Below are positions 16,886 through 56,240 of a stretch of 64,000 bases of DNA, one piece after another. The first letter of the stretch is position 1; each line of letters opens with the position of its first letter. Made by a program: the position numbers and the translations under genes. Below the pieces are notes generated by a model. That model searched no databases, was not told where the DNA came from, and saw only the letters and a program-made list of their open reading frames with translations. Source of the stretch: a virus; the IMG/VR virus record IMGVR_UViG_3300031521_000001; one strand, written 5' to 3'.

Positions 16886-16915
16886 TATTAAATCTGATAT
16901 ATGTTTTGCTTTTTT

Positions 16916-17500: not shown

Positions 17501-17592
17501 TATTGTAGTACAAATATACAAAAAGTTTTTTGTTTTACCAAATATTTTTTGATATTTTTTCTACATTTTTTACTCAAGTACGTTTACAAGAG
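17501..17592. repeat. RB element copy 3 (divergent)
   Basis: attgtagtacaaatatacaaaaagttttttgttttaccaaatatt...actcaagtacgtttacaagag. Confidence 0.65.
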
Positions 17593-17764
17593 TTTTAAAA
17601 AATCAAATCATTTTTCAGTTCTTTTTATCTTCACAGATTAGAAATAACATTTTTTCATTTGTTATATTTACTTCTGTAACATTAAATTTATGTATTTTCA
17701 GTTTCACTATAATCTTGTTCAAGATTAAGGGTGGTTTCCTTACTACTAAATTGTGATTACTTTA

Positions 17765-17833
17765 ATCTAAGTGTGTTCATTTGCACTATCATTCTCTTGC
17801 AAGCTTTGAGAGGTTTTTATACCATTAGATTTT
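17765..17833. repeat. RA unit copy 7 (divergent)
   Basis: ctaagtgtgttcatttgcactatcattctcttgcaagctttgagaggtttttataccattagatt. Confidence 0.7.
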
Positions 17834-17861
17834 TTTCAATCTGAAATTTGATTTGTTTTTA

Positions 17862-17930
17862 TTGTAGTTCAAAATTACAAAAAGTTTTTTGTTTTACCAA
17901 ATATTTAATGTTAAAGTTTTGAACTTTTTT
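17862..17930. repeat. RB element copy 4 (lacks the terminal hairpin)
   Basis: attgtagttcaaaattacaaaaagttttttgttttaccaaatatttaatgttaaagttttgaact. Confidence 0.8.
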
Positions 17931-17971
17931 TCAATTGAAATTTAATTTTTGTGATTATATTTCTTTTGATA

Positions 17972-18056
17972 TTGTAGTGCAAAATTACAAAAAGTTTTTT
18001 GTTTTACCAAATATTTAATGTTAAAGTTTTGAACTTTTTCAAGTACTCTTACTTGA
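17972..18056. repeat. RB element copy 5 (complete, with hairpin)
   Basis: near-identical to copy 1. Confidence 0.8.
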
Positions 18057-18071
18057 AGTTTTTTGTTTTTT

Positions 18072-18135
18072 ATTGTAGTACAAAATTAATAAAAGTTTTT
18101 GATACTACCAAATATTTAATGTTAAAGTTTCAGTT
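18072..18135. repeat. RB element copy 6 (partial), abutting the stop of 18136..18474
   Basis: attgtagtacaaaattaataaaagtttttgatactaccaaatatttaatgttaaagttt. Confidence 0.65.
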
Positions 18136-21093: not shown

Positions 21094-22737
21094 ATGTTAA
21101 AATATGATGATTATAATAAATTGAATGAGGCTTTCTTTCATCGTAGTAAAGATGAGTTAGAAAATCTCATACATTCATTTAAAAGCTTGATTATAAATCT
21201 AAAACAATCAATAGATAAAAAATATACATTAGATTTCTATAAAACTCAAATCAAAGAGGATTTAGAATCATATAAAATAAATATATTGAATAATTACAAT
21301 AAAAATACAATTAGTAAATTTAAAGATTTGTTTAAAGAATTTTTAAATAATGTAGATAATGACATAATTAAGCATATGAAATTAGGTAAATTTGCTAATG
21401 ATATATTAAAGATATATTCTATTAATAATTCTTTTGATATTAACATAAAGAATGTAAATAGTGTGTTTAAAGCTTATCTTGATAATGTTGATAGATATAT
21501 AGACAACACATATGATTTTTTCTACAATAAGATTGAGACTGATAAATCATATGAACCATATAATAAAATTGATATTAAAATAAATAAAGTCCCTATTGAT
21601 GAATATCAAAAAACAAAATACAAATATCAAATTGAGTTATTAAAATTACAAGAATGGATTACATACAACAATAAAAAAGTATTGATTATATTTGAAGGTA
21701 GGGATGCTGCAGGAAAAGGTTCAGCGATTAGAAATATCACAAGATTTCTAGATCCAAAGCATTTTAGAGTACAGACATTTGGTATACCTACAGAAGAAGA
21801 GAGTAATAATTGGTTTGATAGATATGAAAAATCTTTACCTAAAAATGGAGAAATTGTTTTTTTTGATAGATCTTGGTATACAAGAGGTTATGTTGAACCA
21901 GTGATGAAATATTCAACTGAAGATAAATATAATAAATTTATGAAAGAAGTCAATAACTTTGAAGATAAATTAATAGATGATGACATCATACTTATAAAAA
22001 TATGGTTCTCCATATCTCAAGATGTACAAAAAATGAGATTTGAATTAAGAAAATCTAATCCATTGAAATACTGGAAGTTTAGTAAGAATGATGAGCAAAC
22101 ATTAGACAAATGGGATGAATTTACTAAATATATAAATGAGATTTTCAAAAAAACAAATACTAAAGATTCTCCTTGGATAATAATAGATGCTGATGATGAA
22201 AATTATTCAAGATTAGAATCTTTCAATAGTATAATAAAATCAATAGAAAAAGATAAATCAAACATCAAAGAGGGTGGAATAAAAGTAATATTTGAAGATT
22301 TAGATGGACCATTAATTCCATATGATAAAAATTCAGATACCGACTATCATAAATTTTTTAATGATCCAGAAAAATGGAGTAAGACTGCTATGAGCAATTT
22401 AAACAATATTATTGAAAAGACAGAAGCAAAAGTAGTATTATCTTCTTCATATAGAGATGATAAACCATTAAGCGAAATAGAAAAGATGATGAAAACTGCT
22501 GGATTTAAATATAAAATATATGACGTTGTTCCAAATGACAAATCTAAAAAACGTGGATCTGATATAAAAGATTGGTTAAAGAATAATAAATCAGTTAGTA
22601 ATTTTATTATTATTGACGATAATAAGCATGACTTATATGAAGTATTTAGCAAAAAACACATTGTTAAAACTACTCATGAATTAGGAATAACAGATGATAT
22701 TAAAGATGAAGCTATTGATAAATTAAATACTAAATGA
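21094..22737 (+). CDS. ppk2: polyphosphate kinase 2 (PPK2) with an N-terminal extension and a C-terminal HAD-like phosphatase domain
   Basis: Walker A FEGRDAAGKGS and PPK2 motif FFDRSWY; C-terminal HAD motifs FEDLDGPL (I), VVLSSS (II), IIIDDNKHD (IV). Confidence 0.8.
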   Translation: MLKYDDYNKLNEAFFHRSKDELENLIHSFKSLIINLKQSIDKKYTLDFYKTQIKEDLESYKINILNNYNKNTISKFKDLFKEFLNNVDNDIIKHMKLGKFANDILKIYSINNSFDINIKNVNSVFKAYLDNVDRYIDNTYDFFYNKIETDKSYEPYNKIDIKINKVPIDEYQKTKYKYQIELLKLQEWITYNNKKVLIIFEGRDAAGKGSAIRNITRFLDPKHFRVQTFGIPTEEESNNWFDRYEKSLPKNGEIVFFDRSWYTRGYVEPVMKYSTEDKYNKFMKEVNNFEDKLIDDDIILIKIWFSISQDVQKMRFELRKSNPLKYWKFSKNDEQTLDKWDEFTKYINEIFKKTNTKDSPWIIIDADDENYSRLESFNSIIKSIEKDKSNIKEGGIKVIFEDLDGPLIPYDKNSDTDYHKFFNDPEKWSKTAMSNLNNIIEKTEAKVVLSSSYRDDKPLSEIEKMMKTAGFKYKIYDVVPNDKSKKRGSDIKDWLKNNKSVSNFIIIDDNKHDLYEVFSKKHIVKTTHELGITDDIKDEAIDKLNTK

Positions 22738-22741: not shown

Positions 22742-23149
22742 ATGAAATATTTAAAAAAATATGAAATGTTAAACAAATTAGACACATCAGATAATCCTAT
22801 ATTTATAGAATTTATGATTAATTTCATAACATCTTTAGATTATGACTTAACCACAAATTACAATAAAAAATACTCTAGAAATGAGATATTTTTTTATAAC
22901 AAAGATATAAATTCTGAGGGTTTAAAATTTTGTATTGAAATAACAAATGATGAATTAATTTTTAAAAAATACCATAATAATTTTAAGATTATTGAAGAAT
23001 ATTTAGAAACTATCAATGGATTAAATTTAATAAATATTGATCATCACATATACAACTTTAAGATATCAGGAAATACTCTAGATATCGAAGAACAGATAAC
23101 AAAAAAGAATTTTGATATGTTTAGAGAAGCAAATAAATTTAATTTATGA
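22742..23149 (+). CDS. family A protein (MKYLKKYE...ANKFNL)
   Basis: array IV. Confidence 0.75.
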   Translation: MKYLKKYEMLNKLDTSDNPIFIEFMINFITSLDYDLTTNYNKKYSRNEIFFYNKDINSEGLKFCIEITNDELIFKKYHNNFKIIEEYLETINGLNLINIDHHIYNFKISGNTLDIEEQITKKNFDMFREANKFNL

Positions 23150-23487
23150 AATATTTAAAAAAGTTTGAATCTAAAGAAGTAGATTTATTTAATGCTATTG
23201 TAAATGACAACACAAAAAGAGTTGAATATTTAATTAGACTTAATGCTGATATAAACATTCAAGATGCTGAAGGTAGAACTCCATTATTTTATGCAGCAAA
23301 TCATGATTTTATGAGTATTGTTAATATACTTATTGAAGCAGGAGCGGATTGGAATATTATTAACAACAAAGGATATGATTTTACATATTTATTAAGTGAT
23401 AAACAATTTGATTATATTATGAAAAAATATCCTGATGAATATAAAGAATATTTAATGAAAAAAACAGCAAACAAATTTAACTTATGA
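23146..23487 (+). CDS. ankyrin-repeat protein in family A frame
   Basis: NADINIQDAEGRTPLFYAANHDFMSIVNILIEAGADWN. Confidence 0.8.
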   Translation: MKYLKKFESKEVDLFNAIVNDNTKRVEYLIRLNADINIQDAEGRTPLFYAANHDFMSIVNILIEAGADWNIINNKGYDFTYLLSDKQFDYIMKKYPDEYKEYLMKKTANKFNL

Positions 23488-23915
23488 ACCATTTAAAAAT
23501 ATATGATAATTATAAAGATAAAATGAATTCAAAGAACAAATTCAATAATATGATAAATGAGTATATACCAGGATATTACATGATATATAAATCTAATACT
23601 TATCATTGGAAGCAACATAGATACAATGAATATATAGTATTATGTAGAATTATAAATCCAGAAGTTTTTGATGAAGTGGATCTAAGATTAAACATAGATA
23701 TTCTATCTTATTTTTGTGAATTAGAACAACATGAATTAAGGGAAGATGAAAAAATAAAGACTGGAAAACAAATAATAAATCCAAATCATTCAACGTTTGA
23801 AAGATTATTTTTGTCATCGTCATTAAAAACATCTCAAGATAAATTTGAAGAATTGAAAGAAACTACATATTATCAATGGGAATTAAATAAAGTCACAGAT
23901 AAATTTAACTTATGA
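23484..23915 (+). CDS. family A-related protein (MNHLKIYDN...TDKFNL)
   Basis: array IV. Confidence 0.7.
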   Translation: MNHLKIYDNYKDKMNSKNKFNNMINEYIPGYYMIYKSNTYHWKQHRYNEYIVLCRIINPEVFDEVDLRLNIDILSYFCELEQHELREDEKIKTGKQIINPNHSTFERLFLSSSLKTSQDKFEELKETTYYQWELNKVTDKFNL

Positions 23916-24298
23916 AAACATTCAATCAATACAATGAATCTATAAAAAATAAACATTTTCCTATATATTTTAGAAGATATTATGAATCAGGTAGATATAA
24001 AATATCAGATATATATTACGACATTGAACAAGCAAATAAATATAGTATTGAATATGTTCTATTTAATAATACCACTAAAGGAGATGAGTTCTTTTACTTA
24101 TATTTATTTCCATGTAATGAAAATGAATCTAAAATTATTAGTTCTGAGTTAATAGGTATGTTTAATCTATCAAGTATATTTAATGAAGACTTAACAACAG
24201 AAGAAAATATAGAATTAATAAAAACATCAAAAAATGCGAATATTATAAATTTAGAAGATGTAAATTTAATAATAAATTCAAATAAATTTAATATATGA
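23912..24298 (+). CDS. family A variant, N-term MKTFNQYNE (T4 CTS-like), C-term SNKFNI
   Basis: array IV. Confidence 0.75.
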   Translation: MKTFNQYNESIKNKHFPIYFRRYYESGRYKISDIYYDIEQANKYSIEYVLFNNTTKGDEFFYLYLFPCNENESKIISSELIGMFNLSSIFNEDLTTEENIELIKTSKNANIINLEDVNLIINSNKFNI

Positions 24299-24726
24299 AA
24301 ACATTTATACAGTTCAATGAAACTGAAAATTATGGAGAACCAATGTACAGTAATACAAATAGAATAACTCTTAACCTTTATTCTTATAATGACGAAGAAA
24401 ATGATTTTCCTCTTTTAGAACGAGATATCAAAAAATTAGAAGAAAATAATATTTATTATATTATAATTAGTACAACAGACAATTATATTAACTCTACACA
24501 ATTTCAAACAATGTTTAAAATTTATGCATTACCAAAAAATAAAGAACAGAGAGATATAACTTATTATAATATGAATTTTTCTTATAATACTAAAATTAAC
24601 ATAGAATACAATGGTGAAAATTTAGATGAAGTTTTAGATGCAATTAAAAAAAGAAATAAAAATTTTTCAATCATAAATAAAGAAGACTTATATGTTATTA
24701 TAAATTCAAATAAATTTAATATATGA
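24295..24726 (+). CDS. family A variant, N-term MKTFIQFNE (CTS-like), C-term SNKFNI
   Basis: paralog of 23912..24298. Confidence 0.75.
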   Translation: MKTFIQFNETENYGEPMYSNTNRITLNLYSYNDEENDFPLLERDIKKLEENNIYYIIISTTDNYINSTQFQTMFKIYALPKNKEQRDITYYNMNFSYNTKINIEYNGENLDEVLDAIKKRNKNFSIINKEDLYVIINSNKFNI

Positions 24727-25082
24727 AAACATATCAACAATTTAATGAAATGAGCAATGTTGGATGTACTATATTTTTCAAAGTATATTTTAAATTTGAA
24801 AATGTGTATAAACAAATTGAGATATTAGATGAAAATAGAATAGATTATGATATATCTTATCATAATAAATTCATTAAAATAGATGCTTATGCTTATTCTA
24901 TAAGTGAGTATAATTTTCTTATATCAATTGAATTCAAAATAAATAAAAAATCACAAGAACTAATAAATCCAAATATGTCACTTGATAAAATTAGAAGTAT
25001 TGTAAAATCAGACAAAGGTTGGACGCCAACAAGTAAAGAAGAATTACCATACATTAATGATATAAATAAATTCAACTTATGA
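24723..25082 (+). CDS. family A variant, N-term MKTYQQFNE (closest to T4 MKTYQEFIAE), C-term INKFNL
   Basis: array IV. Confidence 0.75.
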   Translation: MKTYQQFNEMSNVGCTIFFKVYFKFENVYKQIEILDENRIDYDISYHNKFIKIDAYAYSISEYNFLISIEFKINKKSQELINPNMSLDKIRSIVKSDKGWTPTSKEELPYINDINKFNL

Positions 25083-25585
25083 AATATATAAAAAGATTTG
25101 AAAGTATAATAACAGAATTGAATTACTCAAGTAAAGGATTAACTTCTTTACCTGAGTTGCCTGATACATTAAAGAATTTGGGATGTCATCATAATAAATT
25201 AAGATATCTACCAGAATTACCAACTACATTAGAAGAATTGTTTTGTGGCGATAATGAGTTAAAAAAATTGCCAACTTTACCAAACACAATAACAAATTTA
25301 ATGATTCATCATAATGATTTGACAGAATTGCCAGATCTACCAGATTCATTGATAAATTTTTCATGTGGGCATAATAATTTAACTGAAATACCAAAATTAC
25401 CAAATAATTTAGTATATTTTTTATGTGATAATAATAATTTATCTGAATTACCAGAAATGCCAGAAACTGTAACTCAATTTAGTTGTAAGTATAATAATTT
25501 ACCATATGAAGATTTGAATGGATATTGGGATTGGTTTTATGATAGAAATCCAGAAAGAAAACAAGCAAAAAAATTCAACTTATGA
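25079..25585 (+). CDS. leucine-rich-repeat protein in family A frame (MKYIKRFE...AKKFNL)
   Basis: about 7 tandem LRRs of 20-22 aa (LPELPDTLKNLGCHHNKLRYLPELPTTLEELFCGDNELKKLPTLPNTITNL...). Confidence 0.8.
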   Translation: MKYIKRFESIITELNYSSKGLTSLPELPDTLKNLGCHHNKLRYLPELPTTLEELFCGDNELKKLPTLPNTITNLMIHHNDLTELPDLPDSLINFSCGHNNLTEIPKLPNNLVYFLCDNNNLSELPEMPETVTQFSCKYNNLPYEDLNGYWDWFYDRNPERKQAKKFNL

Positions 25586-26097
25586 GATATTTAAAAAAAT
25601 TTGAAAAATATAATGCATCTTTAGATTTAAATTATATTTTAGAAGATGATGTATATAGTGATTCAGATGCAATAAAATTATTAAAAAAAGTGAAATATGC
25701 TATTGACAATGATTGTGTTATTGATAATATTAATATACATTGGATGGAAAGAACTCCTTTAATTACATGCGCTGTTTTAGACTGTCATATAAAAACCCAG
25801 TCTAAATATAGAAATATATTTGAGCAAATAGCAAAAGAACTAATTAATTCAGGAGCTAATATAAATCATATAGATAAAGATAACAGAAGTGCTTTAATAT
25901 GGGCTACAGATAGAGGACATTTTGATGTAATGGAACTATTAATTGAAAATGGCGCAGATTGGAATATTATGGATGTATTCCATCATGAATTTCATGAATA
26001 TTTGAGTGATGAACATTTTGAAAAAATTATTCATAAATATCCAGAACAATATGAATTGTATAACATGAAAAACAACACGAACAAATTCAATTTATGA
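25582..26097 (+). CDS. ankyrin-repeat protein in family A frame
   Basis: ELINSGANINHIDKDNRSALIWATDRGHFDVMELLIENGADWN. Confidence 0.8.
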   Translation: MRYLKKFEKYNASLDLNYILEDDVYSDSDAIKLLKKVKYAIDNDCVIDNINIHWMERTPLITCAVLDCHIKTQSKYRNIFEQIAKELINSGANINHIDKDNRSALIWATDRGHFDVMELLIENGADWNIMDVFHHEFHEYLSDEHFEKIIHKYPEQYELYNMKNNTNKFNL

Positions 26098-26585
26098 AAC
26101 ATATAAAAACATATACTCAGAAAGAATTGGATGATAATTTGTTGAAATATTCAGCAAAACAGGCATCTTTGCAAAAAGTAAGAGAATTGATAACAGATGG
26201 AGCTAACGTTAATTGTTTTGATCGTATCAGATATAACACGCCATTAATTAACGCATCACAACAACTAAATTATAGTACAATTAAATTGTTAATAGAAAAT
26301 GGTGCTGATATAAATTTAGTAAATAAAAACAATAAAAATTGTATATTTTATATTGTTAATCAAAACACATATACTTATACTAAATATAAAAATAAAATTA
26401 ATAATATAATTGATTTATTAATTTCATCTGGAATAAATTTAAACAATAAAAATAAAAGTGATGTTGATATTTTTGATAATATTCAAGAATCAAATCCTTT
26501 TATTCTTCAATATATAATAGATAATTATCCAGAAGAATACAAAGAATATTTAATGAAAAAAACTGCAAACAAATTTAACTTATGA
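26094..26585 (+). CDS. ankyrin-repeat protein in family A frame
   Basis: LITDGANVNCFD...NTPLINASQQLNYSTIKLLIENGADINLVNKNN. Confidence 0.8.
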   Translation: MKHIKTYTQKELDDNLLKYSAKQASLQKVRELITDGANVNCFDRIRYNTPLINASQQLNYSTIKLLIENGADINLVNKNNKNCIFYIVNQNTYTYTKYKNKINNIIDLLISSGINLNNKNKSDVDIFDNIQESNPFILQYIIDNYPEEYKEYLMKKTANKFNL

Positions 26586-26902
26586 AATATATTAAAGCAT
26601 ATGAAACAGTTGAAGTCTGGAACGATAATAAAAGGATAAAAACATATGATTCATCAGAATACGAATTAAGTGATTATGTGATTTTGAATAAGCTTTATTT
26701 TCCAGATATAAGTGATAATTACACATATCTTATAGGTAAAATAATAGACATTTCAGAAAATAATAATATGTTTTATTGGGTTATTAAATTACCAGATAAA
26801 AAAGTAGTATGGACTGGAGATTATGAAATACATAAAACTATAACAAAAGAAGAATATGAAACGCTAGAAATAAAAAATTCATCAGATAAATATAATATAT
26901 AA
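26582..26902 (+). CDS. family A-related small protein (MKYIKAYE...SDKYNI)
   Basis: array IV. Confidence 0.7.
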   Translation: MKYIKAYETVEVWNDNKRIKTYDSSEYELSDYVILNKLYFPDISDNYTYLIGKIIDISENNNMFYWVIKLPDKKVVWTGDYEIHKTITKEEYETLEIKNSSDKYNI

Positions 26903-27558: not shown

Positions 27559-27741
27559 ATGACAAAAATATTAGATATTATAAATAAATTATTCTTATTT
27601 TTTGCTTTGCTTTGGTTAGCCTTATCATTGTGTGTAATAATTATATTATCATTAATTAAAACTTTTTTGAGAATAACATATAAATCAATTAAGAATAAAA
27701 TCAAAAGAAAAAATGAAAAAAAAATTACTATGGTTGGATGA
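27559..27741 (+). CDS. possible small transmembrane protein
   Basis: hydrophobic core LFLFFALLWLALSLCVIIILSLI; overlaps the next gene by 29 nt; the alternative minus ORF 27528..27755 is also hydrophobic, so strand is uncertain. Confidence 0.3.
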   Translation: MTKILDIINKLFLFFALLWLALSLCVIIILSLIKTFLRITYKSIKNKIKRKNEKKITMVG

Positions 27742-28051
27742 TTCTCGTAATCCATTAGAAAATGATTGGTTAGTTTTTAGTCCAATTGGAAAAGATGTAG
27801 AAGTGAGTTGGGTTATGACTCAAACTGAATTTGAAGATTGTATTATGATTAATGGATTACCTGATGCAATATGTTTTGATCATGACTTGGGTACAGGTAA
27901 TGGTGATGGATATGAGTGTGCCAAATGGTTATGTAGATACTGTGACAACAAAAAATTAAAACTACCTTTATATGCTATGCAATCAGCTAATACAGTAGGA
28001 AGAGAAAATATTGATTGCTATTTAAAAAATTATATGAAACACTGCTATTAA
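27713..28051 (+). CDS. stand-alone receiver (CheY-like/cREC-like) domain protein
   Basis: KKLLWLDDSRNP ... AICFDHDLGTGNGDGYECAKWL pattern resembles REC-fold phospho-acceptor and cyclic-phosphate-processing receiver domains. Confidence 0.45.
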   Translation: MKKKLLWLDDSRNPLENDWLVFSPIGKDVEVSWVMTQTEFEDCIMINGLPDAICFDHDLGTGNGDGYECAKWLCRYCDNKKLKLPLYAMQSANTVGRENIDCYLKNYMKHCY

Positions 28052-28055
28052 TATT

Positions 28056-28253
28056 ATGAAAAACGAAAAAGAAAAAGAAATAAAGGATTTTGAAAAATGG
28101 AGAATAAAAGAAGAATTAACTCTTCAAATTTTGATTGGATTAAATAAATCAATTGAAGATTTTAAATCTACTACAATTGAAGGATATAAACCAACAAATA
28201 AAGATATAAATTCTGTTCTAAGTACAATTTTAAGCAAAAGGTTAAATAAATAA
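28056..28253 (+). CDS. hypothetical small protein
   Basis: ORF followed by a hairpin. Confidence 0.55.
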   Translation: MKNEKEKEIKDFEKWRIKEELTLQILIGLNKSIEDFKSTTIEGYKPTNKDINSVLSTILSKRLNK

Positions 28254-28254
28254 A

Positions 28255-28286
28255 AAAAGAGTTATGATTTAAATCATAACTCTTTT
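28255..28286. terminator. perfect 32-bp palindrome aaaagagttatgattt/aaatcataactctttt between convergent genes
   Basis: perfect inverted repeat. Confidence 0.7.
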
Positions 28287-28290
28287 ATTT

Positions 28291-29013
28291 TTATTTCTGA
28301 AATGATGGTTTCAGCCACATTTTTGTGTGTTTAAAAATATAATCTCTTAATTCTGGAAATTCATTCAGCATCAAAATTGTTTTTAATGTATCATACTTAA
28401 AACACTTTGTAAGTTCATCTTGAATTCTTTCATTAGAAACTACTTTCATTTTTGATTCATAATCATAATTTTTGATAGCGATTTCAATATCATCAGTCAT
28501 TCTGAATCCTTTTGTGATACAAAAACGGACGCATCTCAAAATCCGTAGGCTGTCCTCATCAAATGTAAGTTCACATGGTCTTGGAGTTCTAAGAATTCCC
28601 ATTTTTAAATCTTTCACACCATCAAACAAGTCAATCAAAGTACCATTCTCATCAACAGCCATAGCATTTAATGTGAAATCACGTCTTATTAAATCATCTT
28701 CTAGTGTACCAAGTTCTAAAATTGGACGTCTTGTACCTTCATAATAGCCAATTTCCTTTCTTGCCATTACAAAATCTGCTGTCAATCCTTCATGCTTATG
28801 TCCTTTTGGAAATTTTGCTTTGATAGTAAAACATCTTGGTGTTGAATTGTATATAGTGTAACCATTTTTACGTAGCCATAACTCCATATCCATAAATCCA
28901 GATTCAACTGATTGATTCATATCATCTAATACAAAAGTAAAGTCAATGTCTTTACAATCAACTCCTAAAATACGGTCACGAACCGCTCCTCCCACTTCAT
29001 AAATTTTTGGCAT
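28291..29013 (-). CDS. nucleotidyltransferase, tRNA CCA-adding/poly(A) polymerase head domain (Pol-beta superfamily)
   Basis: motifs GGAVRDRILG...DIDF and RRDFTLNAM. Confidence 0.8.
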   Translation of the reverse strand: MPKIYEVGGAVRDRILGVDCKDIDFTFVLDDMNQSVESGFMDMELWLRKNGYTIYNSTPRCFTIKAKFPKGHKHEGLTADFVMARKEIGYYEGTRRPILELGTLEDDLIRRDFTLNAMAVDENGTLIDLFDGVKDLKMGILRTPRPCELTFDEDSLRILRCVRFCITKGFRMTDDIEIAIKNYDYESKMKVVSNERIQDELTKCFKYDTLKTILMLNEFPELRDYIFKHTKMWLKPSFQK

Positions 29014-29085
29014 ATTTTTATTTTTATTTAATTCTCACAAAGATATGGAGAATAATTGATACTAGCAAATCTTTAAGTTAAAAAA

Positions 29086-29649
29086 TCAATCTATAGGTAA
29101 TCCACCAAAAGTCTTTTGAGCCCATACAGCTAATGAGTGTCTTTCGGAATCTGTGTAATTATTAACATGGTTGTGGTAGTAATTATAAGTTTTAACTTCC
29201 TCAGCATATCTTCTATCTTCTATTTCCGATTTTAAAGTACTGTTAACTTCTATACCTTTTATATTATTGTGATTGAGTAACGTTTCTAGTATTGAAGTTT
29301 TAATATCTTCTAACTTGTAATCCTTAATTACAGAACCTATTACAATAGGTAACCTCTTTGTATTATCCAATACTGAATTGAGTGTGTTTGGATCAGTAAA
29401 CTTTAAATATACATAAGCCCCATACATATCAATATCTAAGTTATACATGTCAAATAGTATTACGTTCTTGGAACAATAATTACCATGACAAAGAAGAGAA
29501 TGTAAACTAATATGATTCTCATGAAGACAATACCTATCATCTAGTGATAACTCTTTTAATACTTTCTCAAAATATTCAGGAGTAGTTTTCTTATCTTGAA
29601 CTGCCTGATGGACAATTCCTGCATTAGGGTGATATTTGTAATCTCTCAT
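29086..29649 (-). CDS. hypothetical protein (weak phosphotransferase-like HGNYCSKNVIL segment)
   Basis: 187-aa ORF between the NTase and Pnkp genes. Confidence 0.65.
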   Translation of the reverse strand: MRDYKYHPNAGIVHQAVQDKKTTPEYFEKVLKELSLDDRYCLHENHISLHSLLCHGNYCSKNVILFDMYNLDIDMYGAYVYLKFTDPNTLNSVLDNTKRLPIVIGSVIKDYKLEDIKTSILETLLNHNNIKGIEVNSTLKSEIEDRRYAEEVKTYNYYHNHVNNYTDSERHSLAVWAQKTFGGLPID

Positions 29650-29654
29650 GATTT

Positions 29655-29885
29655 TTATTTTTTATATTTTTTAAACCACATACTGTAAATCGAATATATA
29701 TACACACTTAGAAGAAACAAAATAAACACACCTAGTATAATACAAATACTAGTAAAATCTACATTATGATTATTTATATTTGAATTATAAATTATCATAA
29801 TAACTTTAATTGACATTGAAATAAGATACATATACATAGCTGATACTGCTATTGTACCGAAAATTTTAAAAAATTTAATGTTCAT
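29655..29885 (-). CDS. small two-TM membrane protein
   Basis: hydrophobic ORF. Confidence 0.55.
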   Translation of the reverse strand: MNIKFFKIFGTIAVSAMYMYLISMSIKVIMIIYNSNINNHNVDFTSICIILGVFILFLLSVYIYSIYSMWFKKYKK

Positions 29886-30048
29886 ATCTTTTTTTATTTA
29901 TATGTTTATCTTCTATTTTATCAGCGAATTCATTAATATCTTCTGATAATGCTATTAATAAGAAGCCTATTAATATAACACAAGTAAAAATACCAATGAA
30001 GCCTATTAATAAAGCTAATAATCTCAATAATGTTATTATGAATCTCAT
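29875..30048 (-). CDS. small membrane protein, 57 aa (MRFIITLLRLLALLIGFIGIFTCVILIGFLLIALSEDINEFADKIEDKHINKKRYEH); below the 60-aa track cutoff
   Basis: translated by hand; ATG at 30046-30048, TAA at 29875-29877; third of three consecutive small TM ORFs. Confidence 0.35.
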   Translation of the reverse strand: MRFIITLLRLLALLIGFIGIFTCVILIGFLLIALSEDINEFADKIEDKHINKKRYEH

Positions 30049-30059
30049 ATTATTTTTTT

Positions 30060-30293
30060 TTATTTTTTTAATATCTTATATGAAAAAATTAATATTATAA
30101 TAATTAAAAAAAGAGTGATAATTGTTCCTATTCCAAAAAAAATATAATTCTCTATACATTTATTTAATGAATAATAATTAACATCATATAGATAATGTGT
30201 CATTTTAATTCCATCAATTATATAATATAACATGTATCCGTATCCAATCAATAACAAAAAATTAAAAACTATATTAAAAATTTTTTTCACCAT
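30060..30293 (-). CDS. small two-TM membrane protein
   Basis: hydrophobic ORF. Confidence 0.55.
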   Translation of the reverse strand: MVKKIFNIVFNFLLLIGYGYMLYYIIDGIKMTHYLYDVNYYSLNKCIENYIFFGIGTIITLFLIIIILIFSYKILKK

Positions 30294-30301
30294 AATATTA
30301 T

Positions 30302-30574
30302 TTATAGTTTAAATACATAACCTTCTGGAAACTTCTTTCTACATTCTGAACCAACTCCCATAACCCATGCATTATCATAAGTTTCTTTATCATCTGCTTT
30401 ATACATTCCACCACCAAATATTGAATTGATGAAATATTTTGGCTCTTTTAATATTCTACCGCAACATGGACAATGATCCATATTCATACTATCTGCTTTA
30501 TCAGCATTAGAATAATATAAATCAAGATTCTCAATTGTAGGAATACTAATAATATCTTCAGGTTCTTTATTCAT
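30302..30574 (-). CDS. small zinc-binding protein (HCPCCG...GSECRKKF)
   Basis: Cys/His cluster. Confidence 0.6.
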   Translation of the reverse strand: MNKEPEDIISIPTIENLDLYYSNADKADSMNMDHCPCCGRILKEPKYFINSIFGGGMYKADDKETYDNAWVMGVGSECRKKFPEGYVFKL

Positions 30575-30613
30575 ATAGTTGATTATTTATAATTACAATA
30601 CAAAGGTATATAA

Positions 30614-30642
30614 AAAGCCTTGAATAAAAAATATTCAAGACT
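30614..30642. terminator. hairpin agccttgaata-aaaaa-tattcaagact (one mismatch)
   Basis: inverted repeat between tandem minus-strand genes. Confidence 0.45.
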
Positions 30643-30666
30643 TTATTTAATATATTTTAATACTAA

Positions 30667-31605
30667 TTAGAAAAAATTGGAAGCGTCAACATATTTGAAT
30701 CCACATCTTTTAGCGAATGTTTTATCACTTGTCAAATCTCCAACCATTGTACATTGTGATGAGTCAAGTTTATATTTTTCAATAAAATCTACACCTAATC
30801 CTACACCTGGTTTTCTACAATAACAAATTATTGGAGGTACTGAATGTCCACAATATTTATAATCAATATTAACTCCTAACATTTCATTTGTTTTTTCAAA
30901 ACAAGCTATTGCAGTTTCATGAGTTAATAAGCCTTTTGCTATACCGCTTTGATTTGAAACCCCTAGTAGTATATAACCTTGTTTCTGTAATTCTAAAAGT
31001 TTTTCTGTTCTACCAGGAATAATTTCTATATCATTCACATCAGTAGGGAAATGTCCTCCACTTTTAGTTACTCTTAAAGTACCGTCATAATCAAATAAAA
31101 TAGCTTTATTTGTATATTCTGATGGTTTACGTTTAAAATCAATTTTTTCTATATCATCAATTCCTTCTGATAGTTCTGGTGCTTCAAAATGTTTATTAAT
31201 TTTATAAAGTGCTGCAACAGGAAACATATGTGGATCATTAACTTTAGAATAATCACTTAAATTTGTAAACAACCTACCTTGAGTTTTTATCATTCTGGTA
31301 ACAGCATTGAACATACAATCTTCAATTTTTGTTGTGAAATAAAGACACAATACATAGTAGCCATATTTTTTTGCTAATGCAATAGCATCAGCCCTAGATA
31401 ACTTAGTAGAATATGTACCATCTAAGATAATATCTACTCCATCTATCATCAAGTTTTCAAGTTTTTTGTTGAGTGAACTTAATGTACCACCTTCAATATC
31501 TCTTGAAAGTAATGTACACTTATAATCAACCCATTTTTCAACAATACTTGATTTTCCTGCTGCTGGTAATCCACAAGTTATAACTAATTTTTTATCTTTT
31601 ATCAT
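30667..31605 (-). CDS. pnkp: polynucleotide 5'-kinase / 3'-phosphatase (T4 Pnkp-like)
   Basis: N-terminal P-loop ITCGLPAAGKSS; C-terminal HAD phosphatase motifs ILFDYDGTL (DxDGT), LLGVSNQSG, VGDLTSD. Confidence 0.85.
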   Translation of the reverse strand: MIKDKKLVITCGLPAAGKSSIVEKWVDYKCTLLSRDIEGGTLSSLNKKLENLMIDGVDIILDGTYSTKLSRADAIALAKKYGYYVLCLYFTTKIEDCMFNAVTRMIKTQGRLFTNLSDYSKVNDPHMFPVAALYKINKHFEAPELSEGIDDIEKIDFKRKPSEYTNKAILFDYDGTLRVTKSGGHFPTDVNDIEIIPGRTEKLLELQKQGYILLGVSNQSGIAKGLLTHETAIACFEKTNEMLGVNIDYKYCGHSVPPIICYCRKPGVGLGVDFIEKYKLDSSQCTMVGDLTSDKTFAKRCGFKYVDASNFF

Positions 31606-36835: not shown

Positions 36836-37159
36836 ATGAAATATATAAAGAAATTTGAAAATACTGAAGATAAACCAAAAGTTGGTGATTATGTATTGAT
36901 ATCAATTGATAATGATGAAGAAAATGATTTTTACTCTAATAATCCAGGACAAATTATTAAATTTTTTACTCTACAAAAATATAGGTTTACAGTTATGATA
37001 TCATATGGTAAAAACATTCCTGATAACATGAAAAATATATTATTACTTAATAAAAGATGTGGTTATTATAAAATTTTTGACTATGAAGATATCTTCATAT
37101 TTTCTAAAAATAAAGAAGATTTAAAACTAAAAATAGCATCAAATAAATTTAACTTATGA
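36836..37159 (+). CDS. family A small protein (MKYIKKFE...GDYVL...ASNKFNL)
   Basis: array V. Confidence 0.8.
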   Translation: MKYIKKFENTEDKPKVGDYVLISIDNDEENDFYSNNPGQIIKFFTLQKYRFTVMISYGKNIPDNMKNILLLNKRCGYYKIFDYEDIFIFSKNKEDLKLKIASNKFNL

Positions 37160-37473
37160 AATATATAAAATCATTTGAAAAAATAAATAATACAATTCAT
37201 TATAAAATTCCAGCATATCCGTTAGAAGTATATTTTATTGCAATAACTAAAATTGGTATGACACAAGATGAAATATCTCATTGGATTAATAATAAATACG
37301 CTCAATATTGGAATAACTCACATTTTAAATTTATATATTTAAATAACACATACAATGATTATACTAAAAAATATCAATGGAGTTGGACAAATAACATAAA
37401 TAAAGCAAATGAGACTGTAATAGAAATAACTGTTGAAGATTATGAAATTGATGCAAACAAATTTAACATATGA
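37156..37473 (+). CDS. family A frame with divergent core (MKYIKSFE...DANKFNI)
   Basis: array V. Confidence 0.75.
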   Translation: MKYIKSFEKINNTIHYKIPAYPLEVYFIAITKIGMTQDEISHWINNKYAQYWNNSHFKFIYLNNTYNDYTKKYQWSWTNNINKANETVIEITVEDYEIDANKFNI

Positions 37474-37793
37474 AATACATTAAGAAATTTGAAATGATTG
37501 AAGATAGCCCAAAAGTTGGAGATTATGTCTTAATGAATATTAGTTATGATAAAAATTCAGATTTTTATCTTAATTATCCAGGTAAAATAATTAAATTTTT
37601 TACAATAGGAAAATATCGTCAAGGTGTAAATATATCATATGGAGATAATATTCCTGATAATATGACAGAAATATTAGGGTATACAAAAAAACATGGATAT
37701 TATAAAAATTTTCAATATAAAGAGATATATGCATTTTCAAAAAATAAAGAAGATTTAAAAATTAAAATAAGCGCAAATAAATTCAATATATGA
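37470..37793 (+). CDS. family A small protein
   Basis: paralog of 36836 (about 60% identity). Confidence 0.8.
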   Translation: MKYIKKFEMIEDSPKVGDYVLMNISYDKNSDFYLNYPGKIIKFFTIGKYRQGVNISYGDNIPDNMTEILGYTKKHGYYKNFQYKEIYAFSKNKEDLKIKISANKFNI

Positions 37794-38158
37794 AATACTT
37801 GAAAAAATTTGAAGATAATATAAATGAGCCTGAAGTTGGAGATTATGTATCTATAATAGGTAAAAAATTTATTAATCATTTAAGAAGATACTATGATGAT
37901 AAAGATATTGTTAATTTGAAAAAATATCTTCTTAATTTTCCTGGAAAAATTCATAGTACCTTTAATGATAAAAGAATAGGTGTGACATATGGTTTTGATG
38001 TTCCAGAAGATGTAAAAAAATTTTTACAATATGATAAACCTTATGGAGGTTACAATAAAATATTTAATTATGAAGATATAAATGCATTTGGAAAAACAAT
38101 AGAAGAATTAAAATATAAAATAGAACTTAAAAATAACATTAACAAATTTAATATATGA
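37790..38158 (+). CDS. family A small protein
   Basis: array V. Confidence 0.8.
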   Translation: MKYLKKFEDNINEPEVGDYVSIIGKKFINHLRRYYDDKDIVNLKKYLLNFPGKIHSTFNDKRIGVTYGFDVPEDVKKFLQYDKPYGGYNKIFNYEDINAFGKTIEELKYKIELKNNINKFNI

Positions 38159-38466
38159 AATACATAAAATCATTCAAAAATAAAAATTTAGAATATGAGG
38201 TAGGAGATTGTGTTAAAATAAAAATAATTCCTGATTATGTAAGTCATATAGAAAGAATTGAAGATAATTTATTTGTAAAAATAATAGAAATGAATTTTTT
38301 GACGAATCATAATAATAGTGATATTGATAATATATTTATTGTGTTTGAAACATTAATCACTAAACAAAAAATATCTGGTAATATATATTTCATTTCTAAA
38401 AAAATGACTGAATCAGAAATAGATTATTGTAAGATTAAATCAGAAACAAATAAATTCAACTTATGA
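38155..38466 (+). CDS. family A small protein (GDCVKI variant)
   Basis: array V. Confidence 0.75.
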   Translation: MKYIKSFKNKNLEYEVGDCVKIKIIPDYVSHIERIEDNLFVKIIEMNFLTNHNNSDIDNIFIVFETLITKQKISGNIYFISKKMTESEIDYCKIKSETNKFNL

Positions 38467-38756
38467 AATACTTAAAAAAATTTGAAGATATTGAAAATAC
38501 TCCAGAAATTGGTGATTACATTATTCCAAATGTAGAAACATTGAATCATCTTATTGACAATAAAATTAATAATCATGTATATCAAATAATAGGAACAAAA
38601 GAAAGAAATATGGGTGGTTTTTTATATATCATTAAAGTAAAATTGAATGATAATCAATTAGATGACTGGTATTTATCCAATTATGAAATAATGCATTTAT
38701 CAAAAAACAAAGAAGATTTAGAAGTATTATTACAATCAAATAAATTTAACATATGA
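38463..38756 (+). CDS. family A small protein
   Basis: array V. Confidence 0.8.
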   Translation: MKYLKKFEDIENTPEIGDYIIPNVETLNHLIDNKINNHVYQIIGTKERNMGGFLYIIKVKLNDNQLDDWYLSNYEIMHLSKNKEDLEVLLQSNKFNI

Positions 38757-39034
38757 AATATATAAAAACATTTGAAAGAATTAATTATTATATACCAGAA
38801 AAAGGTGATTATGTTATTTGTGGTGGTAATAATACATGGGATAGTAAATTCGCAAAATTTATATCAAACAACATTGGAGTATTAATAAATCATTTACCTA
38901 ATCAATATAGAATAGATTATGATTATATTGATCCATATTCAATATATTTAACAAATAGAAAAGATATATTATATTGGTCAAGTGATAAGAAAGAATTAGA
39001 AGAAATTCTACAAGCAAACAAATTTAATTTATGA
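38753..39034 (+). CDS. family A small protein
   Basis: array V. Confidence 0.8.
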   Translation: MKYIKTFERINYYIPEKGDYVICGGNNTWDSKFAKFISNNIGVLINHLPNQYRIDYDYIDPYSIYLTNRKDILYWSSDKKELEEILQANKFNL

Positions 39035-39342
39035 AACACATTAAAACATTTGAAAATAATTATGAATATGCAGAAGTTGGAGATTATGTTATTATTAATG
39101 TGAATAATCTAAAATTCAGCAATGATAATATAGGTAATATTTACAAGAAAATGTTAACTGATAATGTATATAAAATAATTGACAGTAAAATAGTATCAGG
39201 AAACAGACAAATATATCTAATTGATTTATATGACGATGAACATATTAACGGATATTATATTGATAGTAAGAATGTATTAGCATTTGATAAAGATAAAGAA
39301 TTTGTTAAATGTAAAAATGATATAAACAAATATAATTTATAA
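39031..39342 (+). CDS. family A small protein (C-term INKYNL)
   Basis: array V. Confidence 0.8.
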   Translation: MKHIKTFENNYEYAEVGDYVIINVNNLKFSNDNIGNIYKKMLTDNVYKIIDSKIVSGNRQIYLIDLYDDEHINGYYIDSKNVLAFDKDKEFVKCKNDINKYNL

Positions 39343-39718: not shown

Positions 39719-40612
39719 ATGAAAGAATTAGAATTAAAAAAATTAGTACATTCAACTATAGACAACACTATCAAGTATATTTTTTATACTGAAGATAAAT
39801 TGATAGTTGAATTTTCTTATATCAATAAGAATGATGGTAAAAATATTATTTGCTGTCCAGTTTCAACATTTTGTAATATAGGCTGCAAATTTTGTCACAC
39901 AGCAGAATATATTGGTAAAATTAAAAATAGAAACCTAACATCATTAGAGATTTCAAATGGAGTTGATTATATTTATAATGATTTGAAACTATCTGAAAAC
40001 CCAAAAACTTTATTGATAAGCTCCATGGGTATTGGTGAAATTGTAACCAATGTTGATGAAGTTGTAGAATCAATGATAAATATTCAAAATACTTATCTTA
40101 AAGATATATATGTTAGATTTGCATTTGCAACATCTTTACCTGAATCTCACAAAATCGAGTTTTTCAAATTGACAAATAAAATTGCAGAGAATAATTTACC
40201 TGTTAAGTTGCATCTATCATTACATTATACAACAGATGAATTAAGAAGTCAATGGATGCCAATGTCAATGAAAATTGAACCAACTATTGCAGCAGTTGAT
40301 TACTATAAAGCAACTACAGGAAATGATGTTGAAATACATTATGCACTAATAGAGAATGTTAATGATAAATCAGAAGATGCTATGAGATTAAGCAATCTTA
40401 TTAAAGGTAAAGGTTATAATGTTAAATTTTTATTCTATAACAAGAAAGATAATATAGACGCTGAACCATCTAACATTTCTAAAATTAGAAACTTTGTTGA
40501 TATATTTAGTCTTGTAGGAATAAAACATGAATACTATGTACCTCCTGGACTCACAATTGGAGCATCTTGTGGTCAACTATCTATAAATGAGTATATTAAA
40601 ATAAAAAAATAA
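39719..40612 (+). CDS. radical SAM enzyme of the RlmN/Cfr family (RNA adenine C2/C8 methyltransferase), N-terminally truncated relative to bacterial RlmN
   Basis: CNIGCKFCHTAE (Cx3Cx2C, compare RlmN CALECKFCSTAQ) and C-terminal GASCGQL (compare the RlmN Cys355 motif AACGQL). Confidence 0.75.
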   Translation: MKELELKKLVHSTIDNTIKYIFYTEDKLIVEFSYINKNDGKNIICCPVSTFCNIGCKFCHTAEYIGKIKNRNLTSLEISNGVDYIYNDLKLSENPKTLLISSMGIGEIVTNVDEVVESMINIQNTYLKDIYVRFAFATSLPESHKIEFFKLTNKIAENNLPVKLHLSLHYTTDELRSQWMPMSMKIEPTIAAVDYYKATTGNDVEIHYALIENVNDKSEDAMRLSNLIKGKGYNVKFLFYNKKDNIDAEPSNISKIRNFVDIFSLVGIKHEYYVPPGLTIGASCGQLSINEYIKIKK

Positions 40613-40630
40613 TAATTAAATAATAATTAA

Positions 40631-42091
40631 ATGAATAATAGAAACTTCATATTACATATAAAAGAAGATAAATACAAAAAATTATTAATTGATTATATTT
40701 TTAAATATCGTCAATTCGAAAACTTATATCTTATAATATTAAAAGAGAATAAGGATGATTTTAATTTTTTATCTAATTATAAAGTAATGAGAGCTATTCT
40801 TGCGGAAACTACTGGAGGTAAAGATAAAAATGAAGTTGATTTTATTAGATATAAATATAAAGAAAATGATAAAATGAATGAATTAATTATTTTATCAAAA
40901 AGTCTTAAAATACATAATATTTCAGATTTGATTAAAAGAGTAAAATCAAATTATAAATCTTTTTTCACTAAAATAAGAAATAAAGTTAAAGCCAACGTTC
41001 CATGTACAAAAAAGTTATCACTATTGACTAAATATTCCATTCTAGTTGATAAAATTGCATTTTCAATAAAGAAAAAGGATAAAATTGGAATCAACTTGAG
41101 TAATAAAATGTTTTATATTGATTTTAAGCATAAAATATTACCAGATAATATACAAAGTCTTAAAGTCGTTTACTCAAATAAAGAAGTTTATTTACATTTT
41201 AATTACTTGACTGAAGATATATTAAACACAAATAATTCATTAATAAAAGAAGCAGGAATAGATGTAGGTATTAATAATTTATTAGCTATATTTATTGATG
41301 ATAAAACATCTAAATCAATAATTGTTGACGGAAATATTTTTAAAACTTATAATTCAAAATTCAACAGGTTCTTGTCTAAACTTAATGAATCAATTTCTAA
41401 AGAAGTCATAGAATTTAAACTCAGTAATACTGGTACTAAATATGCAGTTAAGTGGACTAAAAGAGGAATAGAATTACGTAAATATAAGACATTTATTTAT
41501 GAAAAAAGAAATCGTTATTTTTATGATCAATTTCATAAAGTTAGTAAACGTGTGGTTGAATTATTGAAATTAAATTCTGTAAACAATCTAACAATTTCAT
41601 ACAATCTAGCTAGATTAAAATATAATGGTGATTGTAAATTAAATAAAAAAGTAAAACAAAATTTCATACAAATTCCTTTCATAAAACTACTAAATTACAT
41701 TCAATATAAAAGTAATGAAGTTGGAATTCAAGTAGATATAATTGATGAATCTTACACATCAAAGTGCTCATGTATTAGTGATAATGTGAATGATCCGTTA
41801 GATAAAGAACTAAATGGTGTTCGTTCTAAAAGAGATTTATTTACTGATAAACTAATAAATAAAACAATGAATGCTGATTTGAACGGTGCTGTCAATCATA
41901 TAAAAAAATCAAACAAAAATAATAATTTTTCTTGGTTGGAAAATTATATGTTTAAACTGTGTAATCCAGTTAAAATTAAATGCGACTACGATTTCTTTAA
42001 ATATTTAAAGAATAGTGTGCTCTGGCAAGGAATTTCATCAAAAGAAGTTCAAACGTCACTTCATGTACAAAATTGTACAAGTTTAAGTTGA
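40631..42091 (+). mobile_element. tnpB: IS200/IS605-family (IS1341-like) TnpB RNA-guided nuclease homolog; no tnpA
   Basis: RuvC-I GIDVGINNL, RuvC-II RVVELL, hallmark ESYTSKCSC, RuvC-III NADLNGAVNHI; second CxxC of the zinc finger is missing. Confidence 0.85.
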
Positions 42092-55538: not shown

Positions 55539-56240
55539 TTAAATATTTAAAATATAACAAAAATCAGGTAGAGCATCAATATAAGTAATGGATGTATTAT
55601 CTTTTTTTGATTCATTATGAGCTATCTTATCTAAGTGAGTATGGCCACAAATTTGATGATAATTTTTTAATGATTTAGTCCATGTTTCAGTTTTATCAGC
55701 CCACAATGGACCGCCAACCTGGAAACGACCGTTTCTTATATATCCACAATCAACTAAACAACTCAATTCAAATTCTTGTGCTAAATTTAATTTTTCTGCT
55801 ATTGTACCTTCAAAATCTGATATTTTTTTAAATTCTCTCAAAAATTTATCATACCATCCACGGTGAATACCAGCATGAGTCCAAATATAATTTTCATATT
55901 GATATGACATTTGAAATAATTTTAAATTGATGTGGAATATATCATACAAATCGAAATGCATATCTGCTCTATAACCAGTACAATATCCTAATATTTTCAT
56001 TTGGGGTGGGCGTATTGCATATTGGTAATCGTGATTACCTAATAATAAAACAACTTTATCTGGATATTGTTTTTTAAATTCAATTATATCTAATAAATTA
56101 TTTAATATTGTAATATTACTTAGATTATATTCATCTACATAATCTCCAACAAATATAATTTTATCATATTCTGATATATCTTTAACGAATTTCTTCCATG
56201 AATCAAAACCATGAATATCACCTATACTTAAAATTTTCAT
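55539..56240 (-). CDS. calcineurin-like metallophosphoesterase (Ser/Thr phosphatase / ApaH-like)
   Basis: motifs GDIHG, GDYVDEY, GNHD. Confidence 0.85.
   Translation of the reverse strand: MKILSIGDIHGFDSWKKFVKDISEYDKIIFVGDYVDEYNLSNITILNNLLDIIEFKKQYPDKVVLLLGNHDYQYAIRPPQMKILGYCTGYRADMHFDLYDIFHINLKLFQMSYQYENYIWTHAGIHRGWYDKFLREFKKISDFEGTIAEKLNLAQEFELSCLVDCGYIRNGRFQVGGPLWADKTETWTKSLKNYHQICGHTHLDKIAHNESKKDNTSITYIDALPDFCYILNI

Follow-up and report, generated by a model that had tools for sequence, protein, structure and literature searches.

Three RNA-end-repair-family genes in the DNA of a very large phage as probable parts of a dispersed repair toolkit

Within a 64,000-nucleotide stretch of viral DNA (IMG/VR virus record IMGVR_UViG_3300031521_000001, here called the window), the interval 27713-31605 holds three genes which, judged by their sequences, are real members of RNA-end-repair families: a stand-alone cREC domain, a short nucleotidyltransferase (NTase) of the CCA-adding type, and a polynucleotide kinase-phosphatase (Pnkp). 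The three lie within 4 kb, and the catalytic motifs are intact in all of them. We suggest, with a probability of roughly 60%, that they are parts of an RNA-end repair toolkit dispersed over the genome of a very large phage, and not a self-contained system that works without a ligase. The original prediction had placed the genes among the RNA-end-processing families, and this holds: every open reading frame (ORF) that it named is present where it was said to be, all three genes belong to such families, and short NTases recur beside cREC, Rnl5-type RNA ligase and HAD_SAK genes in unrelated viral contigs.

The first of the three had been described as a stand-alone receiver-like domain, which it is, and its family can now be given as cREC: the match to PF20274 covers profile positions 2-88 of 88 with E=4.4e-17, at 63 bits against a cut-off of 27. 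The active-site residues D9, D10, D56-H57-D58 and S91/N93 are kept and are invariant across 20 homologs, and every one of the 808 homologs is annotated PF20274. The gene is the penultimate one in a rightward array, followed by a 65-amino-acid (aa) ORF, and its neighbors in the window include the NTase and Pnkp genes. Profile searches of all window ORFs found no histidine kinase family with which the domain might be paired. A role as a 2',3'-cyclic-phosphate or cyclic ADP-ribose (cADPr) phosphoesterase in phage RNA repair and NAD systems has been proposed for cREC (PMC9503650, and passages of PMC7824862), and passages of the latter also link cRec operonically to RNA ligases.

For the NTase, the GGAVRD and RRDF motifs noted before are confirmed, and together with DID, EDSLR and ERI they make up the full set (GGAVRD, DID, RRDF, EDSLR and ERI at residues 8, 22, 110, 153 and 195); that it is a head domain only does not hold, as the neck is present too. 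The head matches Pfam PolyA_pol with E=5.7e-20, the match to the RNA-binding neck domain being weak, and the protein matches PHROG 24229, 'tRNA nucleotidyltransferase', with E=2.7e-69. It aligns to positions 30-219 of the 466-position model TIGR02692 and ends after the neck; in this alignment and in comparison with PDB structures, the tRNA-binding body and tail domains are absent from the protein. The best NCBIfam score is 106.9 bits against an equivalog cut-off of 290, as is expected for a protein of half length. The short NTases form a stand-alone clade of their own, with a conserved C-terminal tail ('LRDYIF..WLKPT') not found in the full-length enzymes; relatives of the window protein occur in 443 phage records, and the clade occurs widely among large, tRNA-rich phages, where it is annotated as tRNA NTase.

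In class II enzymes, the C-terminal regions help to set the specificity for CCA versus poly(A) addition. The 240-aa protein, lacking the domains that hold the tRNA, might accordingly be a poly(A)-adding or other RNA-tailing or nucleotide-modifying enzyme. It does end after the neck, it scores far under the equivalog cut-offs of every CCA model, and PcnB models match it as well; nevertheless we consider this quite improbable, because CCA-adding enzymes match the protein best, because it has kept intact RRD and nucleotide-selecting EDxxR motifs, and because its clade has the distribution and annotation given above and is linked to RNA ligases and cREC.

Pnkp consists of an AAA_33 kinase domain (residues 7-101) and a PNK3P phosphatase domain (residues 168-294) in Pfam. 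The P-loop GLPAAGKS and the motifs SRD, DYDGT, RKP and GDLTSD are all present, and the phosphatase domain carries a C.H...C.C zinc loop. It had been called a T4-type enzyme; this is correct for the order of the domains, kinase before phosphatase, but not for the sequence, in which similarity to T4 PseT is undetectable. No T4 PNK chain in the PDB was matched at E<=0.01 by the whole protein or at E<=10 by the kinase domain, the six phage records matched by tblastn include no T4-like phage, and the match to PHROG 505 is weak (E=6.7e-6). Both domains are best matched by mammalian PNKP (mouse 1yj5, E=1.5e-16), in swapped order. The mammalian-type layout of FHA, phosphatase and kinase was not found, as the protein has no FHA domain, and it reaches only 84 bits against TIGR01663 (mammalian-type PNKP), for which the cut-off is 503.

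It had also been noted that no RNA ligase is recognizable. This is true of the window, where none of the ~147 ORFs matches a ligase family, but not of the phage. A contig (L027) that is 99.94% identical to window positions 60497-64000 continues for 4.1 kb beyond them and encodes a Rnl5-type ligase, which lies ~0.9 kb past the right end of the window and ~33 kb from Pnkp. On the minus strand, the order is a 121-aa ORF with the PF21189 OB domain (E=1.1e-38), a 304-aa GIY-YIG ORF, and a 235-aa ORF matching PF09414, RNA_ligase (E=7e-17). Joined together, the two ligase ORFs give a full-length match to the Naegleria gruberi RNA ligase (5cot, E=1.2e-67); the motifs KLDG and EGSVFK are present, and the break falls within the inter-domain linker. 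From this arrangement, the ligase has apparently been interrupted by a GIY-YIG homing-endonuclease gene. An unsplit Rnl5 of 357 aa is found in another contig, L108.

The ligase bears directly on the ORFs between the NTase and Pnkp genes. As had been described, these are a 187-aa ORF (29086-29649), three small membrane ORFs (76, 57 and 77 aa, with Kyte-Doolittle maxima of 2.6-3.1) and a 90-aa zinc-binding protein (Zn90). It had been suggested that the 187-aa ORF or another unknown might seal RNA, and thus that one of them (29086-29649 or 30302-30574) provides a new sealing activity in an undescribed, ligase-less variant of repair. This is now largely refuted, and we leave it next to no probability. 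Speaking for it, no ligase family is detectable in the window itself, and Zn90 is kept upstream of the NTase in close relatives, with Pnkp upstream of Zn90 where Pnkp is present. Against this, the same phage encodes a canonical Rnl5 ligase, and the 187-aa ORF is an ORFan: it matches itself only among 5.8 billion proteins, it is absent in the nearest relatives, which keep Pnkp, Zn90, a membrane ORF and NTase/cREC, and its single-sequence AlphaFold model is unusable, with a predicted local distance difference test score (pLDDT) of 45. Zn90 is one of ~50 small phage proteins that form a family with a mean column identity of 61%; its AlphaFold model (pLDDT 95) has zero structural neighbors in the PDB. 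Beyond this lineage the family is found among unrelated genes, and this, like the absence of repair families from the Zn90-anchored loci described below, speaks against a function in repair. Neither the 187-aa ORF nor Zn90 is a credible sealing enzyme. As part of the explanation we favor, and with the same confidence as in the whole, the 187-aa ORF, the three membrane ORFs and Zn90 are probably unrelated passengers in a region where genes are often gained and lost.

The closeness of cREC, NTase and Pnkp in the window is supported by the fact that neighborhoods of NTase with cREC, Rnl5 or HAD_SAK recur in other phages. Short NTases (53-93% identity) served as anchors for 80 viral loci, and the ORFs in the 10-kb flanks were searched with hidden Markov models (HMMs) built in this study. 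cREC was found within 10 kb in 19 loci, the Rnl5 OB domain in 17 and HAD_SAK in 11, while a window-type Pnkp was present in three close relatives only. Dereplication at 90% NTase identity left 56 lineages, with cREC in 9, Rnl5 in 12 and HAD_SAK in 8; counting the phosphoesterase as well, 22 lineages have at least one partner. In six of its nine lineages cREC lies within 3 kb of the NTase (binomial test against a uniform spread over the 10-kb flank, p ~0.025), and in eight of the nine it is on the NTase strand, the exception being the window's own lineage, where the two genes are convergent. A compact version of the gene set exists in another phage: in L108, a metallophosphoesterase (Metallophos, 9299-9967), the NTase (9986-10723), an intact Rnl5 (11254-12327) and cREC (12317-12724), confirmed with Pfam, form one co-directional array. 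These neighborhoods indicate that the genes of the window are a dispersed form of a module that recurs. None of the repair families was present in 34 control loci (455 kb) anchored on Zn90, though the resulting estimate of enrichment is a rough one because the control contigs belong to smaller phages.

Table 1. Features of the window and of the adjoining contig that bear on RNA-end repair (positions are those of the window unless stated otherwise).
Feature	Position	Strand	Basis
Stand-alone cREC domain, 112 aa	27713..28051	+	Pfam PF20274 (cREC_REC), PHROG 1479
Short class II CCA-adding-type NTase, 240 aa, head and neck, no body/tail	28291..29013	-	PolyA_pol, PHROG 24229
Pnkp, 312 aa, N-terminal P-loop 5'-kinase and C-terminal HAD-IIIA 3'-phosphatase	30667..31605	-	AAA_33 and PNK3P
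Split Rnl5-type RNA ligase	~64884-66920 window-equivalent (L027 4388-6424)	-	PF21189, PF09414
Hairpin, perfect 14-bp, T-runs flanking on both strands	28255..28286	both	terminator scan
Zinc-binding protein Zn90, 90 aa	30302..30574	-	conserved HCPCCG...GSECRKKFP
C-terminal half of class II CCA-adding/repair enzyme (body/tail and HD phosphohydrolase), 250 aa	6826..7578	+	TIGR02692
Microbial PARG-like (macro-type) protein	6020..6823	+	Pfam PF10021, E=1.7e-19
PPK2-HAD_SAK_2 fusion, 547 aa, N-terminal ~165 residues without assignment	21094..22737	+	Pfam
Calcineurin-like metallophosphoesterase, beside the tRNA genes	55539..56240	-	Pfam Metallophos, E=2.5e-11
Two phage tRNA genes, no encoded CCA	54490-54578 and 54710-54809	-	tRNA scans
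tRNA-like element, 78 nt, ending ACCA, between the tRNA genes	54584-54661	-	tmRNA model only, weak (15.7 bits)

The linkage that had been supposed for the genes is supported by this recurrence across phages, but they do not form one operon in the window. The two convergent arms are as predicted: the rightward arm stops at 28253, the leftward one at 28291, and a hairpin lies between them, so that cREC and NTase are transcribed toward each other. From its structure, the hairpin is likely a bidirectional terminator dividing the cREC arm from the NTase arm. The terminator scan found no terminator-like site on the minus strand between Pnkp and NTase, and one long leftward transcript may thus cover both. 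A promoter scan performed at the level of chance (56 found, 60.8 expected) and is uninformative on transcription units. We rejected a single self-contained operon in view of the convergent arms and the terminator, the loss or relocation of Pnkp in relatives, and the ligase 33 kb away.

A Pnkp with 84-86% identity to that of the window is encoded on ten IMG/VR contigs. Nine of these show the order Pnkp, Zn90, one membrane ORF and NTase, followed by the 65-aa ORF and cREC in convergent orientation; these nine relatives are without the 187-aa ORF, two of the membrane ORFs and four genes upstream of Pnkp. L019 has a 290-aa insertion in the neighborhood, and in L015 Pnkp lies in a wholly different context. 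Such variable gene content in relatives marks the region as a hotspot of gene gain and loss, and Pnkp is a mobile addition to the neighborhood.

Several observations weigh against the toolkit as we read it. The activity of cREC is a prediction that has never been characterized experimentally (PMC9503650), and homologs of greater distance occupy unrelated contexts. A homing-endonuclease gene interrupts the ligase, whose function too is predicted. In the window, a terminator separates cREC from NTase, which is encoded on the opposite strand, and L019, whose cREC and NTase are both 77% identical to those of the window, keeps cREC, Zn90 and NTase while having no Pnkp. No partner families were found near Pnkp in L015, L003 and L004; likewise, in Pnkp-anchored loci of the huge phages LR756511 and LR756500 and of L015, tblastn and the custom HMMs found none. 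Finally, 34 of the 56 short-NTase lineages are without a partner within 10 kb, and the controls, as mentioned, come from smaller phages.

These points leave room for the view that the three genes are simply neighbors: the NTase would mature the CCA-less tRNAs, cREC would act in NAD+/ADP-ribose or cyclic-nucleotide counter-defense, and Pnkp would serve general end processing, all within an accessory region that holds no pathway. We find this doubtful, while giving it some weight. It is in line with the convergence of cREC and NTase across a terminator, with the varying gene content among relatives, with the cADPr processing also proposed for cREC (in passages of PMC7824862), with PARG-like and NMNAT-like genes in the same window, and with tRNA genes that do not encode CCA. 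In addition, NTase neighborhoods in cultured phages concern NAD metabolism or DNA, and around the best NTase matches in such phages (Cellulophaga phi17:2 and Microbacterium Big4) the gene order includes no Pnkp or cREC. It does not fit well with the recurrence of cREC, Rnl5 and HAD_SAK near short NTases in independent lineages, with the concentration of cREC within 3 kb, with the compact co-directional operon in L108, or with control loci that hold none of these families. We continue to favor the dispersed toolkit.

A further component of the window is a protein corresponding to the C-terminal half of a class II CCA enzyme, including the HD domain (hereafter the HD half). It matches positions 226-462 of the 466 in TIGR02692 (E=9.6e-36), residues 230-500 of PDB 3wfo and positions 183-381 of 392 in PHROG 2244. 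With the NTase, which covers positions 30-219, it tiles the TIGR02692 model, and the two do likewise on 3wfo and PHROG 2244. The metal ligands are kept, and the gene lies 21 kb from the NTase on the opposite strand, in a tight three-gene array with the PARG-like gene and a 253-aa ORF upstream of the latter (5257-6018) that had no informative match in profile searches. Full-length fused CCA enzymes exist, for example as a 501-aa ORF in MT837203. In 80 viral loci anchored on the HD half, it is part of a fused protein in 62 and a protein by itself in 18. All the nearest relatives of the window protein belong to the latter group, mostly on contigs of 100-500 kb. This stand-alone clade has proteins of 250-296 aa (L025 7962-8759, L026 7950-8768, L159-L167, L173-L175, L182), with the HD metal ligands kept and no NTase within 10 kb. 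The complete 642-kb phage LR756502 has a stand-alone HD half, an NTase that is HD-less but otherwise full-length (~380 aa) and a cREC, all far apart, which indicates that the HD half is not just one part of a broken gene pair.

We tried the NTase and HD half as an obligate split enzyme and rated this low, given that the NTase has a clade of its own with a C-terminal tail, that the halves are not close to each other elsewhere, and that LR756502 pairs them differently. For the same reasons, the HD protein is read here as an independent tRNA-end phosphohydrolase. Its likeness, as a separate protein, to the E. coli CCA enzyme is still suggestive. For the HD-domain activity of that enzyme, PMC6961547 cites Yakunin 2004.

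This likeness is the basis for a different reading, in which tRNA 3' ends are repaired without a ligase: cREC and/or the HD half would open the 2',3'-cyclic phosphate on a clipped tRNA acceptor end, the Pnkp phosphatase would clear what remains and the NTase would rebuild CCA, mirroring the E. coli CCA enzyme in trans, while other breaks would be left to the ligase and the Pnkp kinase. Seen more broadly, huge phages might split the CCA enzyme into a head-neck NTase and an HD/body-tail phosphohydrolase which, with cREC and a PNKP-like phosphatase, would repair toxin-attacked tRNA acceptor ends independently of a ligase. If true, this would be an acceptor-end repair route distinct from the anticodon-loop paradigm of T4; we regard the scheme as unlikely, and its extension to huge phages as no likelier. 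In the E. coli CCA enzyme, CCA repair is preceded by removal of the 2',3'-cyclic phosphate by the HD domain (passages of PMC6961547), and in the window the HD module is a separate protein with intact metal ligands. It is also consistent with such a route that in L041, L045, L068, L074 and L113 cREC adjoins the short NTase and no ligase was detected closer than 3 kb, and that the phage tRNAs have no encoded CCA. On the other hand, an intact Pnkp kinase domain would be superfluous, Rnl5 is found near short NTases as often as cREC, and no host toxin target is known. The two halves also keep apart: an HD half was found within 10 kb of a short NTase in 0 of the 80 NTase-anchored loci, and an NTase within 10 kb of a stand-alone HD half in only 1 of 18 (L221, with a different arrangement).

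For the dispersed toolkit, we would propose a scheme that includes sealing, with the substrates, the order of the steps and the cooperation between the proteins being what we infer. cREC and/or the separately encoded HD protein would open the cyclic phosphate or remove it. The HAD domain of Pnkp would then clear the remaining 3'-phosphate and its kinase domain phosphorylate the 5'-OH, after which the Rnl5-type ligase encoded outside the window would seal the nick. The short NTase would rebuild trimmed 3' ends and may also add CCA to the tRNAs of the phage.

The tRNA genes that had been described as a cluster 23 kb away lie at 54.49-54.81 kb, but the cluster is a small one, with only two tRNA genes and one tRNA-like element. 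Since neither tRNA gene encodes CCA, the NTase presumably has an ordinary maturation role as well; on this evidence, the two tRNAs are likely substrates of the NTase. The tRNA at 54490-54578, assigned to Phe with anticodon AAA by ARAGORN, contains a ~30-nt insertion that follows the anticodon stem region.

Other genes of the window may have related functions. The PPK2-HAD_SAK_2 fusion combines a PPK2 P-loop kinase (E=1.2e-72) with HAD_SAK_2, a 'Swiss army knife' RNA-repair phosphatase (E=7.7e-24); it lies ~5 kb from cREC and is 90-93% conserved in relatives. Its domain composition suggests a polyphosphate-driven end-healing enzyme. The metallophosphoesterase matches the phosphoesterase part of PHROG 8238 weakly, and its homologs adjoin the short NTase in L050 and are near the NTase in L040, so that it may be regarded as a weak candidate for a 2',3'-phosphoesterase. 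The PARG-like gene is directly upstream of the HD half, a pairing kept in the relatives L159 and L160; its product could possibly process ADP-ribose derivatives tied to RNA 2'-phosphate removal or to NAD conflicts. Two cytidylyltransferase-like (NMNAT-type) genes were also seen, one in the window (47938-48555, minus strand) and one in L027 (7043-7597, minus strand). Together with the PARG-like gene, they suggest that this accessory region also serves NAD+/ADP-ribose metabolism.

The window has a G+C content of ~23-27% and is densely packed with short ORFs. Its proteins are also encoded on contigs as long as 711,471 bp, from which we conclude that the source is a very large phage, with a genome among the largest known for phages. 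At the nucleotide level, megablast with 24 kb of window sequence detected no relative among 50,697 phage records. Tandem arrays of paralogous genes of 100-170 aa, with overlapping stop and start codons, occupy 4-2002, 11054-14298, 22742-26902 and 36836-39342 on the plus strand; many of the proteins start with MKYIK.FE and finish with KFNL, and some contain ankyrin or leucine-rich repeats. A full-length GOLLD RNA (Rfam RF02032) lies at 14729-15164 on the minus strand, with 243 bits against a gathering score of 150 and model positions 1-416 of 416 covered, and a second, partial match to the 3' part of the model is found at 14394-14495 on the same strand. Both are within a nearly ORF-free stretch of ~3.8 kb (about 14300-18100), the remainder of which matched no Rfam family at E<=0.01. 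At 39719-42091 on the plus strand, a TnpB/Cas12f-like protein of 486 aa (OrfB_IS605 and a Cas12f1-like TNB domain) is encoded directly downstream of a weakly matching radical-SAM protein.

If the cooperation proposed here holds, this phage and the L108 operon would be a test bed for cREC, a widespread domain with a predicted cyclic-phosphate activity, and for minimal CCA-type enzymes without tRNA-binding domains, which form a large clade. The 'missing' ligase, 0.9 kb beyond the window, also illustrates that what looks like a gap in a viral pathway can result from where the window stops. Otherwise, the result is an expected elaboration of the known phage counter-defense against host ribonucleases. 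What is new is modest: the recurring module of short NTase, Rnl5, cREC and phosphoesterase, the clade of stand-alone HD halves in huge phages, and the ligase split by an endonuclease gene.

In comparison with T4, where the Pnkp PseT and the ligase Rnl1 act against the anticodon nuclease PrrC, the phage of the window likewise has a Pnkp with an N-terminal kinase and a C-terminal HAD phosphatase, and an ATP-dependent ligase encoded elsewhere in the genome. It differs in that its Pnkp has no detectable similarity to T4 Pnk and is mammalian PNKP-like in both domains, in that its ligase is of the Rnl5 (Naegleria/Deinococcus) type with an N-terminal OB domain and not Rnl1, and in having cREC and the NTase in addition. 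The Naegleria gruberi ligase NgrRnl (5cot, Rnl5 family) shares with the phage ligase the N-terminal OB and C-terminal adenylyltransferase domains, while in the phage a 304-aa GIY-YIG gene separates the two domains at the linker between them. E. coli Cca combines CCA addition with an HD-domain 2',3'-cyclic phosphodiesterase/phosphatase in one enzyme (passages of PMC6961547). Two proteins of the window together tile such enzymes; unlike in E. coli Cca, each phage module has a gene of its own and belongs to a stand-alone clade, and the two genes lie on opposite strands at a distance of 21 kb.

The closest parallel is with the RNA-repair toolkits of jumbo phages, for which Burroughs and Aravind 2016 is said to be the basis on which later papers build. 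The parts list given by Iyer, Anantharaman, Krishnan, Burroughs and Aravind (Viruses 2021, passages of PMC7824862; Viruses 2022, PMC9503650) is the same, the parts held in common being cRec, PKN-HAD, the 'Swiss army knife' HAD, the CCA-adding NTase, the ATP-grasp RNA ligase, PARG/macro proteins and NAD salvage. With cRec, PKN-HAD and CCA-adding enzymes already listed for jumbo-phage RNA repair in passages of PMC7824862, the locus can no longer be called an undescribed variant of viral tRNA repair, as the original prediction had ventured. Unlike the toolkits as those passages describe them, the parts in this phage are spread across more than 60 kb, with a short head-neck NTase, a separate HD half and an endonuclease-split ligase. 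The locus is, in sum, a scattered example of the phage RNA-repair toolkits of Iyer, Burroughs and Aravind.

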